The notes under the pieces are model-generated. The model did not search any database. It saw nothing but the letters and a program-made list of their open reading frames with translations, and had not been told where the DNA came from. From an uncultured virus (IMG/VR IMGVR_UViG_3300005823_000001) (taxonomy: Duplodnaviria; Heunggongvirae; Uroviricota; Caudoviricetes): 64,000 nucleotides of DNA. The DNA is taken from the IMG/VR virus record IMGVR_UViG_3300005823_000001. The stretch is one strand, 5' to 3'. Below, piece by piece: positions 4,402 to 57,076 of this stretch (the stretch's first letter is position 1; each line of letters begins with the position of its first letter). A program made the translations under genes and the position numbers.

Positions 4402-7400
4402 GCGCTCACTTCCTCGGTATATTGGGCCTCAATCAGGTGTAGCTCTCCCCGCAGGCCGCTAGGCCGTCGATGGTGATAGCGGTAGCCCTTATCCATATTA
4501 CAGAATATCTTAGTGCTCCTGCTGTCCCTATAGCATAGCTTCTCGTTGCTTTCATACAGCGCTTGTAAGTCGTCTAGGGTACCCTCGTCAGCTTCCCTAA
4601 GTGCCCAGCTAACCTTAAACCGGCGGTAGTTAGCCTTGCCTATCTCCAAGACCGGAGCCGTCCGGCCCCAATATAGTACCTCTTTCTGGTCACGTCGCCG
4701 GTCAAATGAACGGCTAATAGTGATTGAGAATAGCGCATAGCTAGTTGCATCAGTCAAGTCGTGTAGCACAATCATGCCAGCAACATCAACACTATCTGAA
4801 GGTGTGCTGCTATCACCGCTTTCTACCTCGTCACCACTTATAAGCTCCACCTGAGTAACCTTATACTGGCTATCTTCATTAAGCGGCACCAAATAGTCCT
4901 TATAGGTAGTGGTAGCCTTTGTAGTAATAGCCACCATGCGTGTCCAAGCAGAAGTGCCTACCTTGCGACGATATATAAGGTATTCGACAAACTCTAGGCC
5001 GCTCTCATCCCAATCTATCTGCATATGCGGATTGCCACTTATAACCGGTGTAAGCGCTACATTGGCGATGACCGCCGGAGGTGTCCAGGCCGTAGTAAAA
5101 GTACGCCAACCGGTAGATTCAGCCTGTGTATCATCCGTATCCCAAACATATACTTTCAGCTTATATGTATTGCCGGTATGCAAGTAACCGGTCGGTATGT
5201 CGTGATACTCATTAGAGCTAGCCACTATGCCAGAATCATATATAACAGTCTCAAGAGCGCTATCATAGATGATAGTTCTATACTTGTTCTGGTTAAGAGT
5301 ACCTGAATACGTCCATTGTGTTTGTGGAGTAGGGGTAACTACACTTTCGTCTTCTGCCGGAAAGTCGATTGTAACAGTAGGAGACAAAACCGGCATAAAG
5401 ATGTTATACGCTGATTCAGCCCCTAGTAGATATCCATCACGGGTTTTGACCTTCCACTTATAGGCTGTTCCATAATCGAGAGCCGTAGCTGTCTCATGCT
5501 CCTCATCCTCAGCTGCCGCAGCAGTAGCTATAAAATCATCCCACCTAGTATCTGTCGCATGGGCCTCTTCAGCATACAAGCCTACTCCAGTTTCTTCCTC
5601 ATGGTCAGTTATAGTCTGAGGAGCAATTGCCTGTATACCATTGACGTATACACTTACTTGGTCACCAACAAATCGTATCTCAACCGGATACCAGCCACCT
5701 ATTACCATATCTATACCGCTTGAGGTTTCTATAGTGCTCTGCGAGCCACTTACGCACTTACCTAGGCGTATTACACCCCCATAAGTGGCGTCTGCGAAAA
5801 GATACACATACAAATAATCTTCATCGCTACCTGTAAAATCTTTTATACGGAAAGCTATACCATTCAAGGCAGCAGCGCCCGCATACTTGAGGCGACAATA
5901 CACCTTCCCATCAGCAGAGCCCATATCTTGCCATAGAGAGGCCCTGTACCTGGCATTTAAGGCAGTACAGCGTACTGCATCATCTAACCGGCTCCAAGTG
6001 CCTTCTTGCGTCCAGGCCTTACCTGAGGGCTCGCTGTCATCATTAGCAATAGCACCGGAGCCTGCAAAGGCATCTAATATAGCAGCTAGCGTCTTGGGGT
6101 AACCGCTTACAAGGTTATCGCTAACATTCTCTCGTAGCTCTACCCTAGCACCGCTTTGAGCATCGCTATTGGGGTCATTATGCGTCCAGCTTAATAGGGG
6201 AGTTTGGTCACCGTATAGATTTTCACCGCCGGTAGGATCACAATCGGTAGGTGTAGTAGGTGCTGAACCTATTAGGATAGTTTGTAAAGAAGTCCAATCG
6301 CCCCAGATACCATTGCTATCTTTGCATCGGGCCTTCCACTTATAAGAAGTACCTCTAGTAAGACTATAGGTATCCAGTATTTGAAACCGGCTACCTGTAT
6401 TAGTAACAGAGCCGGAATCCCAAATAAGGACTGTAGCAGCGCTATTCCATATTTGCACTTGAGCAGCTGCCATAACACCGGCATCACCCTGTGAATAGTC
6501 GCCACCGAAAGTAGGCCGCTGTTCTAGTATATCACCAGTGGGAAGCAAGCTAGTAGGCGCGTTAGGCGCATCTAGCGGCTGGTCAATATGCATCATCAAC
6601 TGAGTTACATATTTGGTATTCTGTAGAGCAGCATCCGTCTGGATGAGTACCTGCATGGCATCTATCTGAGCCCAAGTAAGCCCTAGGTCAGACCTGCAAT
6701 GGACGGCGCACAGGGCATAATGCAGAGGCCCATTGCCGTCATGAGTTACAATATACGGAGTGCCAGCAGCTACAAATCCTATCCTTGTCGGACTATAAGA
6801 ACCTGCAAAGAGTTTCACTACATTAGTAGTGCAAAAACCGTTATGGGGCTCGCCGGAGGGCAGAGGGTTAGATACAGGATATGACTCACGATAATTGTAA
6901 TGGTTCGCATCATAGATGTAATCAGTGTCGTCGGTATGAGGTATCTCGTCAACATCACTATAGCTTCCTATCCACTGGTTGTAGGACTGAGTACCTGCTA
7001 CAGGTACCATCGGTGCAAGTACCTTCCCATTAGCAGGTACCACACAGCTGTCATCGCTAATAGCATTAGCTATATCATCAAAGATGAGGTCAATAGCCTG
7101 CGATTCCGTGCCTACGCATCCTATGCTCAAACTATAGTATTCATGCATAGTAGGCGTAGCAGAGATCTCCTCAACTCCATCCATGTAAACCTTAACGGTG
7201 CCAGCATAGACGTTGACTTCCCATCCTATAGTAGACCACTCGTTCTGTATCAAGGACGTAGTTGTAGTACCCTTTACAGCGCCTAGATAGTCCAACAAGC
7301 TAATAGTGCCATCGGTATTGAGCCTTAGCTCCAAGTTACCGCCACTGGCCAGCCATCTAGCTATCTTTCTTGAGTTAGTAAGAGGTAGAGCCGTCCGGCA

Positions 7401-19470: not shown

Positions 19471-19532
19471 TTGACTTGTGTGGTAAGGTTGAGGATAATA
19501 TACATAGAGAGTAGGATATAGCAGCTAGGAGG
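19471..19532 (+). promoter_or_regulatory. Sigma70-type early promoter with leader and RBS
   Basis: TTGACT-17-GATAAT, then GAGTAGGATATAGCAGCTAGGAGG, which is identical to the copy at 56051-56074. Confidence 0.85.
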
Positions 19533-19539
19533 AATCGAG

Positions 19540-19827
19540 ATGACTACACGGAACGCGGTCTACCTACTCCACTTTGACAAGGCCCTATGCCACGCTCAGC
19601 ACTACATGGGCTCCGCTGCTGACCTAGAGGCCCGCCTAGAGAAGCACCGCACCGGTAATGGTGCTCGCCTCATGGCAGTCATCAAGGATTTGGGTATAGG
19701 ATGGGAAGTGGCTCGAATATGGGAGCACGAGACGCTCAAGAAAGCTCGGCTAGCTGAAAGCCGATACAAGAGGGTATACAAGAGCGCTCGGAAACTCTGC
19801 CCCATATGCAGGAATGGAAACAAGTAG
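19540..19827 (+). CDS. Small GIY-YIG nuclease-like protein
   Basis: VYLLHF...HYMGSA.DL.ARL..H..G.GAR...E. Confidence 0.85.
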   Translation: MTTRNAVYLLHFDKALCHAQHYMGSAADLEARLEKHRTGNGARLMAVIKDLGIGWEVARIWEHETLKKARLAESRYKRVYKSARKLCPICRNGNK

Positions 19828-23121: not shown

Positions 23122-23150
23122 TTGACTTTGCCGGTGAAGTGTGCGATAAT
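23122..23150 (+). promoter_or_regulatory. Sigma70-type promoter
   Basis: TTGACT-17-GATAAT; CCACTTGACTTTnCCGGTGAAGT is shared with the 57048 promoter. Confidence 0.75.
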
Positions 23151-53599: not shown

Positions 53600-54475
53600 C
53601 TATAGCTCAAGCGTTTGCAGATGTGTACGGAATTGCGCTGTAGCTCTTTCCTCTTCGGCATCTACCTCCCATAGGGCTTCATAGTCAAGTATCCCGTTAG
53701 CCCTTTCTATAAAGACTCTGGCTTGCTCGTCTCGTAGCGCTTCCCATTGGAATGTACCAGGCCGCTCAGGGTTTTCAGGTATGTCGTACTCTACCTCATG
53801 GCCTGGATTGAGACCTATGCGCTCAAAGTCTATATCATCCCTGGCCCTGGCTACTAGTGCATCGCTACAGTTGTATTCGCCTTTAATCAGGCCCAGCGTC
53901 CATACATAGATGTCCCGCCAAGCAGAATAGGGTATCTCCATACCCTTAGGGTCATAGTCGCCGTAGTAGAAGATTTTGATAGGCTTCTGATGGAGGATAT
54001 ACCGACGGGCTAGGCGCTCAGCCGCTTTCCACTTCTCCGGTATAGAAATGTCGCCGTGAAAAGCAAGTAGGCTGATATTGCCATCCGCGTAATGGTCGAA
54101 TTGGGCAGACATAGCAGAGGCCTCAAACCAACACTCCGTGTATACCGGTTGCTTTTGCCATCGGTCTATAGCACAGTGGCTCCGCTCCTGTAGGGCTCGC
54201 AGCCATTCAGCAGGATTGGTATAGCCGCCACCGCGTACTACAGCAGCACGGCTATCATCGGCTAGGGTAGCCGGATGCCAACCGTTATAGAATTCCTTAC
54301 GGGCTTTGGATAGAAGGCCAAGCAAGTGCTTGTATCCGGCCTTCTCGCTGTAGAGCCCTTCCTGTAACAGCCGGTAGAATACCCACCTAGCTGTTACCTG
54401 ATAGGGCACCGAATCGACATAGCCTTTGGCCATATCTATAATGACCTTGTTCCTAGCAGCAGGTGTATAGGTCAC
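53600..54475 (-). CDS. Topoisomerase VI-A/Spo11-like wHTH + TOPRIM protein
   Basis: TARWVFYRL...Y..L..AR, Q..Y.E.WFE, YYGDYDP.G, RIGLN, WEAL. Confidence 0.7.
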   Translation of the reverse strand: MTYTPAARNKVIIDMAKGYVDSVPYQVTARWVFYRLLQEGLYSEKAGYKHLLGLLSKARKEFYNGWHPATLADDSRAAVVRGGGYTNPAEWLRALQERSHCAIDRWQKQPVYTECWFEASAMSAQFDHYADGNISLLAFHGDISIPEKWKAAERLARRYILHQKPIKIFYYGDYDPKGMEIPYSAWRDIYVWTLGLIKGEYNCSDALVARARDDIDFERIGLNPGHEVEYDIPENPERPGTFQWEALRDEQARVFIERANGILDYEALWEVDAEEERATAQFRTHLQTLEL

Positions 54476-55557: not shown

Positions 55558-56046
55558 TTACGCGCCTGCCTGCTCTAGCTGGTCTACCAAGTCCCACCTA
55601 GCCCAAACGAGCATAGGCCGATTCGTGTACCCTTGTAGCTCTGTCCACCGCATCTGTGACTCGGACGCTGTACGGACTAGAGCCGGTACACCATCGTCAT
55701 CGGCCCGCCATGAGTAGTACTTAGTAGGCTCTCCTGGCTTCTGGTAGTAAGAGTCCATTGGCTTCCTAGGGTTACCAGCAGGGAAGGTTGCCTGTATGAT
55801 GTGCCCTGCGGTATTCCATGCTATCTGGTCGGCCTTGTACGATGGCTGGTCATCGCACCCTACAACCGCATGTAGCTTGTAAACGTAGGTCTTTCGCCTA
55901 CTTGTGCGCTCCGGCTGTGTGCCACCATCACGTAGGCAACCATGGTTCTTGCCATTACAGCTACACCGGCAGATATCCTCTCTGGCATGCCAGCAAGCGT
56001 CCCCACAAGTATGTGCGTACATCAGCGCTTCTGTAATAGGATTCAC
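55558..56046 (-). CDS. Cys-rich hypothetical protein, first gene of the leftward early operon
   Basis: CGDACWHA...C.CSC.G.NHG; follows the repeated promoter. Confidence 0.7.
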   Translation of the reverse strand: MNPITEALMYAHTCGDACWHAREDICRCSCNGKNHGCLRDGGTQPERTSRRKTYVYKLHAVVGCDDQPSYKADQIAWNTAGHIIQATFPAGNPRKPMDSYYQKPGEPTKYYSWRADDDGVPALVRTASESQMRWTELQGYTNRPMLVWARWDLVDQLEQAGA

Positions 56047-56050
56047 GTTA

Positions 56051-56112
56051 CCTCCTAGCTGCTATATCCTACTCGCTACAGATATTATCCTCCACTTTAC
56101 CCCACAAGTCAA
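56051..56112 (-). promoter_or_regulatory. Sigma70-type early promoter with leader and RBS
   Basis: TTGACT-17-GATAAT and a 24-bp leader identical to 19509-19532. Confidence 0.85.
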
Positions 56113-56169
56113 GTTTTTCCTCTGTACGAGTGGATTTTTCTTCCAAATTTCTTTTGGCTGTATCCTCTA

Positions 56170-56600
56170 TCTCATGCTTGAGGGTACAATGGCCCCCTAG
56201 GAAAGAGGGTCACTGTACACCAGCTTGAGGTATACAATCCGGTGCTTTCAACCGGACGGCCTTATCTCCATATCTCAGCTGAGGAATTGTCTCGTTTCCG
56301 ATGGAGTGCTGCCCAGGTCTGCCATTACCAGCTATTCAGCCGTGGCCTCAACAGGACGGCTTCTACCCGTAGGCGACTAGATAGTGTCTGGGGTGTCCAG
56401 GTCAGTTACTCACGTAGCCCCTGGCTCCCTGGCCTAAGGGATACCGAATCCTACGGTCTACCGGTAAACCGGCTCATTATGTCAGCTAGCATCGGCCAAG
56501 CTAGCTTGATAGGGAGAGGCGGCCCCGCCGCTAACCGCCTCTCCCCTAACCAGGAGGTAACGGAGGGTATATGGGGGTGCGGCCACTTCATCCATGCCCT
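56170..56600 (-). ncRNA. Candidate large structured ncRNA (class unknown)
   Basis: About ten helices, three GNRA tetraloops on the minus strand, long-range CCGUAGG/CCUACGG helix, upstream TGnCATAAT. Confidence 0.6.
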
Positions 56601-56655
56601 CCATTCTAATTATGACAGGTTTTGCAGCCGGTCGCCGCCAATTTTGGAGAAAGAT

Positions 56656-56684
56656 TTGACTTTTCTTGCGAGGTGAGGCATAAT
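56656..56684 (+). promoter_or_regulatory. Sigma70-type promoter
   Basis: TTGACT-17-CATAAT. Confidence 0.75.
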
Positions 56685-56703
56685 ATATGGTGAGGGTAGT
56701 TAT

Positions 56704-56982
56704 ATGGTGCTACAAATGACTAGGGAGCGTAAGCGGAAAAGGGGTACTCCTAAGGGTACACGGCTATCTCGTGCTCATCGTGATGCTATAAGTCGCGGTA
56801 TGAAACGTAATAAGCAATTTATGGAGGCAATACAAGGCCCGCGTAATGACGATTGGCGAGCTAAGATAGCTGCATCCTCACAAGTGAATAAGGATGAAAA
56901 CCCTAAGGAATGGGAGCGCTTATACAAGCGTCACCTGGCCCGCCTCCGGCTCCTACGGCTTGCTGAGGAGCAGGCTAACTAA
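56704..56982 (+). CDS. Basic protein with NUMOD3-like motifs
   Basis: KGTRLSRAHRDAISRGMK and DWRAKIAAS. Confidence 0.6.
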   Translation: MVLQMTRERKRKRGTPKGTRLSRAHRDAISRGMKRNKQFMEAIQGPRNDDWRAKIAASSQVNKDENPKEWERLYKRHLARLRLLRLAEEQAN

Positions 56983-57047: not shown

Positions 57048-57076
57048 TTGACTTTTCCGGTGAAGTCCATCATAAT
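57048..57076 (+). promoter_or_regulatory. Sigma70-type promoter
   Basis: TTGACT-17-CATAAT; the -35 box overlaps an inverted repeat at 57019-57049. Confidence 0.75.

Follow-up and report, generated by a model that had tools for sequence, protein, structure and literature searches.

A probable phage non-coding RNA with a divergent EGFOA-type core between the divergent early promoters of an uncultured virus

EGFOA (RF02955) is an orphan RNA of unknown function, and the family is said to go back to Weinberg et al. in 2017, in a paper (PMC5737381) whose main text does not contain the word. Large, ornate RNA families in Rfam include GOLLD, ROOL, HEARO, and OLE. Passages of a recent preprint describe EGFOA RNAs as putative small RNAs located in unusually large intergenic regions, and present cryo-electron microscopy data in which they occur as trimers and strand-exchanged dimers (bioRxiv 10.64898/2026.07.01.735769). 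Here, we analyze a gene-free gap of 657 nucleotides (nt; 56047-56703) in the otherwise tightly packed genome of an uncultured virus (IMG/VR record IMGVR_UViG_3300005823_000001), of which a stretch of 64,000 nt, referred to as the window, was studied. We consider it probable that the minus strand of this gap encodes a phage non-coding RNA whose conserved center, at approximately 56393-56255, has a divergent EGFOA-type fold. An earlier note, made from the letters of the DNA, had placed a structured RNA on the minus strand, and this is supported. It had also suggested a possibly new class of phage structured RNA, a view that gives way to a different one: the center contains the EGFOA blocks, the signature hairpin, and a covarying tertiary pair, and is matched by a model built from other EGFOA-type RNAs (R3). 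The RNA is a new variant of a known orphan family and not a new class.

Three elements make up the conserved core, the first of them placed by comparison with the Rfam consensus:
56387-56393, minus strand: CCCCAGA block, equivalent to 'CCcAG' of the EGFOA model.
56352-56359, minus strand: CCGUCCUG block, equivalent to CCGUCcUAG, or CCGUCCUN, of EGFOA.
56308-56332, minus strand: EGFOA signature hairpin GCUG / GUAAUGGCAGACCUGGG / CAGC, with a stem of 4 base pairs (bp) and a loop of 17 nt.

These elements occur in the EGFOA order, and the loop, GUAAUGGCAGACCUGGG, agrees with the family consensus of GUAAAGCUAGACCUGGG, also written GUAAnGnnAGACCUGGG. A pattern combining all three gives one match in the window and none in 100 shuffles, a result that is descriptive and not an independent test, since the pattern was written after the window had been seen. 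Covariation was assessed in the stretch from block to hairpin, aligned across 20 sequences with 19 distinct rows. Within this alignment 94.7% of cells pair, compared with 74.4% when shuffled; none of 500 shuffles reaches the observed value, and all slid controls fall far lower. Three of the four pairs in the signature stem change on both sides across relatives, and the window pairs at all four. Furthermore, all seven of the counted pairs are satisfied by the window.

The same alignment identifies the contact between CCGUCCUN and the loop as a tertiary (pseudoknot) pairing of the form CUN' / NAG, which is derived here from covariation and not from the structure printed in Rfam. Its evidence comes from pair 8-88, joining the last CCGUCCUN base to the loop base before AGACC, neither of which is fixed by the search patterns. 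Across the 19 distinct rows this pair is GC in nine, AU in four, CG in four, GU in one, and something else in one; the sole non-pairing row, L099, is likely to be a chance match within a gene. The contact is backed by three different Watson-Crick pairs. In the window, C56354-U56353-G56352 of CCGUCCUG pair with G56319-A56320-C56321 of the signature loop, with G56352 opposite C56321 at pair 8-88. A second pseudoknot, between CCCAG and the CUGGG with which the signature loop ends, is a candidate suggested by complementarity; both blocks are invariant, so this pairing offers no opportunity for covariation.

Searches for relatives began from a weak lead, in that Rfam at gathering level gives no match anywhere in the window and a permissive search of the region gives five weak matches, of which the best is EGFOA. 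An 18-base pattern, composed of the letters common to the window hairpin and EGFOA, identified seven loci in IMG/VR: five above the EGFOA gathering score, one at 37.0, and one (L088) with the hairpin only. Adding the CCGUCC block at 18-48 nt (block-plus-hairpin patterns) yielded four more IMG/VR loci and nine loci in GTDB species genomes, from Anaerolineae, Actinomycetota, Gaiellaceae, Limnochordia, Bacillus, Peribacillus, and Paenibacillus. Nine of these 13 score above threshold, L101 reaches 37.6, L094 is matched at the hairpin only, and L098 and L099 have no match. A looser loop pattern added L116, L117 (whose loop is identical to that of the window), and L120 (a second EGFOA copy within one phage), and also returned L118, an exact loop in coding DNA that appears to be a chance match picked out of all IMG/VR. 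Altogether, 18 pattern matches lie on IMG/VR viral contigs. A single-sequence model from L091 (R1) finds one site in the window, the hairpin, at 14.4 bits (E 0.011), and none in the parts searched of 46 loci from phages related through a topoisomerase-like gene (0/46). For R3, 16 EGFOA-type RNAs other than the window were used; the model aligns at full length to 56372-56301 on the minus strand with 23.9 bits (E 1.9e-4), the next-best site in the window being non-significant at 11.7 bits. Comparison with Rfam and a covariation analysis had both been proposed in the earlier note; they delivered a covarying stem and contact, together with a nearest match that is sub-threshold and belongs to a known family.

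Several results weigh against an EGFOA-type RNA at this locus, some concerning the core and others the transcript that would contain it. RF02955 itself matches only through model positions 71-95 (56332-56308 on the minus strand), giving 17.4 bits (E 1.7) where 37.7 is required; taken alone this is chance level, and the lead was for that reason tested in five ways. R3 gives the L118 chance match 20.6 bits, only about 3 bits less than this site, so the case rests on the stem, the blocks, and the covarying contact together and not on the score. The small EGFOA hairpin (Pb) after CCGUCCUN and the AGGCAG linker are absent in the window, where block and hairpin stem are separated by only 19 nt (UUGAGGCCACGGCUGAAUA), to which R3 aligns a weak, mismatched UGAGG/CCACG. 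The distance from CCCCAGA to CCGUCCUG is 27 nt, compared with approximately 5-12 nt in most EGFOA members, and imposing the EGFOA hairpin on a nested fold model raises its energy by 10.5 kcal/mol. Finally, the outer helix P1 has three mutually exclusive candidate pairings:
56342-56336 / 56282-56276, minus strand: CGGCUGA with UCAGCUG.
56343-56338 / 56261-56256, minus strand: ACGGCU with GGCCGU, the latter a possible 3' strand of the outer helix.
56361-56356 / 56343-56338, minus strand: AGCCGU with ACGGCU, a local hairpin.

On the side of the transcript, the 3' half (56399-56175) folds within the range of its shuffles (z -1.11 on the minus strand, with 28/200 as stable; z -0.38 on the plus strand, with 68/200). 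The 5' arm has no relative by blastn, by nhmmer, or by R2, a single-sequence covariance model of the predicted fold searched in 35 sources. The extended -10 pattern TGNCATAAT, a candidate for the start of the RNA, has three matches in the window where 2.26 are expected, and no intrinsic terminator is present. Ten sediment or subsurface metagenome runs contain the stretch, all as contigs, and no RNA run is listed among them.

The flanking stems bear on how much of the gap belongs to the RNA. Those listed in the earlier note are all in the minus-strand sequence, where it had put them or a few bases away, and most are recovered in predicted minimum-energy folds; the list did not include the GCUG / 17-nt loop / CAGC hairpin at 56332-56308 by which the RNA is identified. 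The features surrounding the core are as follows:
56400-56605, minus strand: 5' arm of perfect hairpins, comprising H1 to H4, CCGUAGG, and CCAGG/CCUGG.
56605-56597 / 56567-56559, minus strand: H1, including GGAGGG (56602-56597) with CCCUCC (56567-56562).
56546-56533 / 56524-56511, minus strand: H2, a 14-bp hairpin.
56506-56500 / 56490-56484, minus strand: H3, AGCUAGC with GCUAGCU.
56472-56469 / 56464-56461, minus strand: H4, a CCGG stem.
56456-56450 / 56373-56367, minus strand: long-range pairing of CCGUAGG with CCUACGG.
56424-56420 / 56401-56397, minus strand: CCAGG with CCUGG, around UAC-GUGA-GUA.
56351-56346, minus strand: UUGAGG, with two CCUCAAGC copies at 56230-56223 and 56183-56176.
56306-56301 / 56271-56266, minus strand: second hairpin, CUCCAU with AUGGAG around UCG-GAAA-CGA, with AAUUCCUCAGCUG, seen in one sequence.
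56255-56239, minus strand: CCGGU / UGAAAGC / ACCGG hairpin.
56184-56218, minus strand: terminal 13-bp hairpin, GUACAGUG-A-CCCUC / GGGGG-C-CAUUGUAC, with one CCUCAAGC copy on each side.
56609-56617, minus strand: candidate extended -10, TGTCATAAT, back to back with the rightward promoter (56656-56684) at a distance of about 40 nt.
56476-56484, minus strand: a second TGNCATAAT match, TGACATAAT, and an alternative start.

Some parts of the 3' arm resemble those of relatives. The second hairpin begins one base past the signature hairpin, as does CUCCC...GGGGG in L094, and AGAUAAGGCCGUCC, in the region 56239-56261, resembles GAUAAAGCCGUUCC of the same locus. L089 has a hairpin of like shape, GCGCACUG..CAGUGCGC, followed by CUCAAGCC (CUCAAGC); its likeness to the terminal hairpin was judged by eye only. 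The 13 nt GCCGUCC(G/U)GUUGA recur as a direct repeat on the RNA strand, at 56248-56260 and 56348-56360, 100 nt apart, one copy being the conserved EGFOA block and the other the start of the CCGGU hairpin. Since ACGGCU (56343-56338) could pair with the one or the other, the RNA may adopt alternative folds.

The gap lies in a phage-like genome with nearly all genes on the minus strand, in which family searches recognize an SNF2 helicase, a topoisomerase-like protein, an amidase, and an HNH endonuclease. Near-identical copies of the window in public runs come from marine-sediment and subsurface metagenomes. The genes and promoters at the edges of the gap are:
55558-56046, minus strand: leftward gene bounding the gap, with a GTG start and an AGGAGG site.
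56704-56982, plus strand: rightward gene bounding the gap, at the head of the rightward genes.
56084-56112, minus strand: phage promoter TTGACT-17-GATAAT of the leftward early genes, between the RNA and gene 55558-56046.
56656-56684, plus strand: phage promoter TTGACT-17-CATAAT of the rightward genes, from 56704-56982 onward.

The promoter pattern TTGACT-17-NATAAT has five copies in the window against 0.02 expected, and copies on both sides of the gap bear out its location between divergent promoters, as the earlier note had read it. Its other reservation, that it recognized no tRNA or tmRNA signature, agrees with the searches, which detected neither in the window. It had also pointed to an extended -10 for the RNA: TGTCATAAT is present at 56617-56609, although the pattern behind it occurs about as often as chance predicts. 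That TGTCATAAT serves as the promoter of the RNA is argued best by L094, where a divergent promoter pair (both perfect, with 12/12 matches each) mirrors that of the window, and on this basis the RNA probably starts there.

In this respect, the alternative that fares best is that only the EGFOA core and the 3' hairpins, from about 56470 or 56400 to 56176, constitute the RNA, the 5' hairpins (56605-56480) being either chance or features of the DNA, such as protein-binding palindromes or bidirectional transcription stops at the divergent promoters. We regard this shorter form as a real possibility, if one somewhat less than even. The whole 451 nt (56170-56620) reaches -183.4 kcal/mol on the minus strand, with z -3.35 and none of 100 shuffles as stable, compared with z -2.16 and 2/100 on the plus strand. 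The excess is confined to the 5' half (56605-56400), where it is similar on both strands (z -2.79 on the minus strand, with 2/200 shuffles as stable, and z -3.22 on the plus strand, with 1/200), as perfect DNA palindromes would give. Energy therefore backs only the perfect 5' hairpins and picks no strand, and the stability over shuffles that the earlier note had looked for holds for the whole stretch (0/100 on the minus strand) and not for its 3' half, with the strand left undecided by energy. The 5' arm is without a relative in any EGFOA-bearing locus, a start at TGACATAAT (56484-56476) could give an RNA of about 300 nt without H1 to H3, and the -10 hexamer of L094 ends about 70 nt upstream of CCCAGA, compared with about 215 nt in the window. 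The longer form is favored by L116, in which a promoter-like TTGACA..TATAAT stands about 270 nt upstream of the hairpin (judged by eye), and by L096, of Peribacillus type, in which a promoter-like site and a clear intrinsic terminator enclose about 300 nt around a 129-nt core. Long flanks thus appear usual in the family, and its transcripts are probably much longer than the Rfam model.

Public contigs add little to the choice between the longer and shorter forms. Among the low-share runs, X9 covers 56262-56490 only, in a single 229-nt contig that shows DNA contiguity only; its library is labeled metatranscriptomic and flagged as likely to be DNA. In X10 the coverage is limited to 56197-56347 and 56550-56700, and neither run is counted as expression or conservation. 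Three differences are found, each in a single contig at a depth under 5 and possibly an error. All would keep the proposed fold, as an estimated 70% or so of transitions would by chance:
56247, minus strand: A>G, changing a GAAA loop to GAGA.
56424, minus strand: C>U, changing C-G to U-G in the CCAGG/CCUGG stem.
56587, minus strand: A>G, in an internal loop.

In a different type of alternative, the RNA would control the first early gene on the leftward side, 55558-56046, through a short sequence in its 5' arm:
56552-56562, minus strand: CGUUACCUCCU, a perfect 11-nt complement of 56056-56046, covering the ribosome-binding site (RBS) and the first start base of gene 55558-56046.

Pairing of CGUUACCUCCU with the RBS and start would block translation, acting in cis where transcription reads through into the gene, or in trans where transcripts begin at the 56112 promoter; this strong promoter (56112-56084) stands between CGUUACCUCCU and the gene. 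The complement spans the Shine-Dalgarno sequence to the first base of the GTG, the 11-mer and its target occur at only these two places in the window, and only one in 2000 shuffles of the RNA has a complement of such length. Five gene starts in four relative loci (L108, L110, L111, and L113) were examined in the same way. At the first in L111, 12 nt are complementary to the stretch immediately preceding the start of the next gene (1/2000 shuffles), making one of the four loci, and the other four starts (L108, L110, L113, and the second in L111) have a 6-nt complement only, which is chance level. Moreover, L120, the second EGFOA copy of L111's phage, retains the target but not the 12-nt complement. 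In the window the anti-RBS sequence is partly paired in the predicted fold, it sits in the 5' arm, which is unproven as part of the RNA, and CCUCC-rich strings are frequent in GC-rich stems. Overall, we find regulation of this kind doubtful.

That there is no functional RNA, the hairpins and EGFOA-like blocks being chance or a decayed remnant, seems very improbable to us. Such a view can draw on the Rfam E of 1.7, on the demonstration by L118 that an exact loop can arise by chance in coding DNA, and on the unexceptional stability of the 3' half. It would have to account for three blocks in the right order and spacing, for a stem and a covarying tertiary pair that are both correct, for an R3 match (E 1.9e-4) at the only significant site in the window, and for a large gene-free gap in a tightly packed phage.

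Least credible of all is that the stretch is protein-coding, either through a plus-strand open reading frame (ORF) of 144 amino acids (aa; 56242-56676), which a gene caller predicts on a public contig, or through a minus-strand ORF of 46 aa (56591-56451) with GGAGG 5 nt before its ATG: both frames are open, yet the 144-aa ORF has no Pfam or PHROG family, finds only itself (99% identity) among 5.8 billion proteins, and runs antisense through the conserved EGFOA blocks; the stretch is taken as gene-free.

An EGFOA-type phage RNA remains our preferred reading, and the following model of it is proposed. The 4-bp hairpin would present the invariant 17-nt loop, onto which single-stranded CCCCAGA and CCGUCCUG would dock, the latter through the covarying contact and the former through a contact suggested by complementarity. 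Phage-specific hairpins would surround this core, with the 3' arm ending in the 13-bp hairpin at 56218-56184, and the 5' arm (about 200 nt) might be part of the transcript or lie outside it. The RNA is probably made from the extended -10 back to back with the rightward early promoter, and probably acts as a stable, compact particle that may self-associate, and not as a protein-coding message.

A broader and rather unlikely proposal is that the 108-nt Rfam EGFOA is the core of wider phage early transcripts of 300-450 nt at divergent early promoters, in which variable arms carry specificity, the 5' arm here pairing with the RBS of the first leftward gene. If true, an antisense arm setting the timing of early-gene translation would be carried on the folded and possibly multimeric core as a stable platform, and the window and L094 would represent a new subtype without the Pb hairpin, with an insertion between blocks and with a second hairpin. 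The anti-RBS arm offers a concrete hypothesis for a family that has lacked one, and no new class is opened by it. More generally, EGFOA reaches uncultured marine-sediment phages in forms that the Rfam threshold misses, and two divergent members, in the window and L094, directly follow one of paired divergent promoters and head a leftward gene row. Judging from where promoters and terminators lie in relatives, the transcripts would be about 300 nt or longer, with the Rfam core probably only a part of them.

The gene neighborhoods give no consistent partner for these RNAs. Five EGFOA-bearing relatives have no common partner protein; their neighbors are a DUF6551/ParB-like protein, an AAA_25 and Toprim protein, large terminase, RecT, or unknown proteins, and this argues for a self-contained RNA and not for the leader of a particular gene. 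Searches from the window gave a similar picture. Against 50,697 phage records, the gap had no match by blastn; blastn and nhmmer against 81 and then seven more loci matched only at the 20-60-nt hairpin region; and a subtype pattern of the hairpin plus CUCC had no matches in IMG/VR. The adjacent 162-aa protein has no IMG/VR relative, and the SNF2 helicase, used as a synteny probe, led to one distant locus. The topoisomerase-like protein, used in the same way, led from 266 homologs to 80 metagenome loci, whose flanks share with the window's neighbors only a 214-aa homolog (L002) and distant SNF2-helicase matches (L001 and L025).

Some further observations concern these neighboring genes and loci. 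The topoisomerase-like protein (53600-54475, minus strand; 291 aa) has a PHROG DNA topoisomerase match at 4.8e-22 and no Pfam family. With 266 homologs at E <= 0.001, an estimated 700 or so matching stretches in JGI metagenomes, and many invariant residues, it is by sequence a widespread, uncharacterized phage family. The five copies of the promoter family TTGACTTNTNNGGTRAAGT..NATAAT are at:
19471-19499, plus strand.
23122-23150, plus strand.
56084-56112, minus strand.
56656-56684, plus strand.
57048-57076, plus strand.

Two of the five are directed rightward within the long leftward gene block, and the one at 19471 is upstream of a plus-strand ORF of 95 aa (19540-19827) that has a relative at 43% identity in an EGFOA-bearing phage, G004. 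Contigs in runs X7 and X8 match the window only at 56051-56114, the promoter and RBS, with seven differences and unrelated flanks on both sides, so this promoter cassette seems to be present in another phage or at another locus in the same samples. The 37-kb contig of G004 (IMGVR_UViG_3300031576_000184) holds two diverged EGFOA copies at its ends, L111 at 476-566 and L112 at 6915-7006, each followed by the start of the same small zinc-ribbon-like gene; these could be a tandem duplication across a circular junction, or a terminal redundancy assembled from two strains. On an Anaerolineaceae contig (L098), a tRNA gene (74-146; 71.2 bits) and a degenerate, EGFOA-like loop with an unpaired stem (586-643) are separated by about 450 nt, and the site may be the edge of an integrated element.

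The RNA can be compared with described systems at several levels. It resembles GOLLD, ROOL, HEARO, and OLE in being several hundred nt long and densely folded, and in its location, those families being found in gene-free gaps of phages and mobile elements, with functions unknown or emerging; families of this type have no gathering-level match in the window, nor are they among the five weak matches of the region. The likeness to EGFOA is closer. In both, a covarying 4-bp stem closes a 17-nt loop, GUAAnGnnAGACCUGGG, the CCCAG(A) and CCGUCCUN blocks precede it in matching order, the last CCGUCCUN base and the loop base before AGACC covary as a pair, and the RNA is set in a large gene-free phage gap. 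The window differs from EGFOA in scoring 17.4 bits, under the 37.7 threshold, in having neither the AGGCAG linker nor the small hairpin that follows CCGUCCUN, in having an extra second hairpin after the signature hairpin, and in about 200 nt of 5' hairpins that have no counterpart.

The closest likeness is to L094 (DAOUMD010000283.1), on a contig from an Anaerolineae metagenome-assembled genome. Its neighbor proteins are unrelated, nothing in it corresponds to the 5' arm or terminal hairpin of the window, its insertion is longer (62 nt with three small hairpins, compared with 27 nt in the window), and it has a clear outer helix, ACAG..CGACCU / AGGGUCG..CUGU. As in the window, Rfam scores only the hairpin (21.6 bits), GACACCC(C)AGACA is followed by a long insertion, the Pb hairpin is absent, and the linker to the hairpin is short. 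A second hairpin opens with CUCC one base past the stem in both, GAUAA-R-GCCGU-Y-CC lies downstream, and the RNA follows closely on one member of a back-to-back pair of divergent promoters and heads a row of leftward genes. This shared layout, which departs from that of EGFOA in Rfam, suggests from the two sequences that the window and L094 belong to a common subtype.

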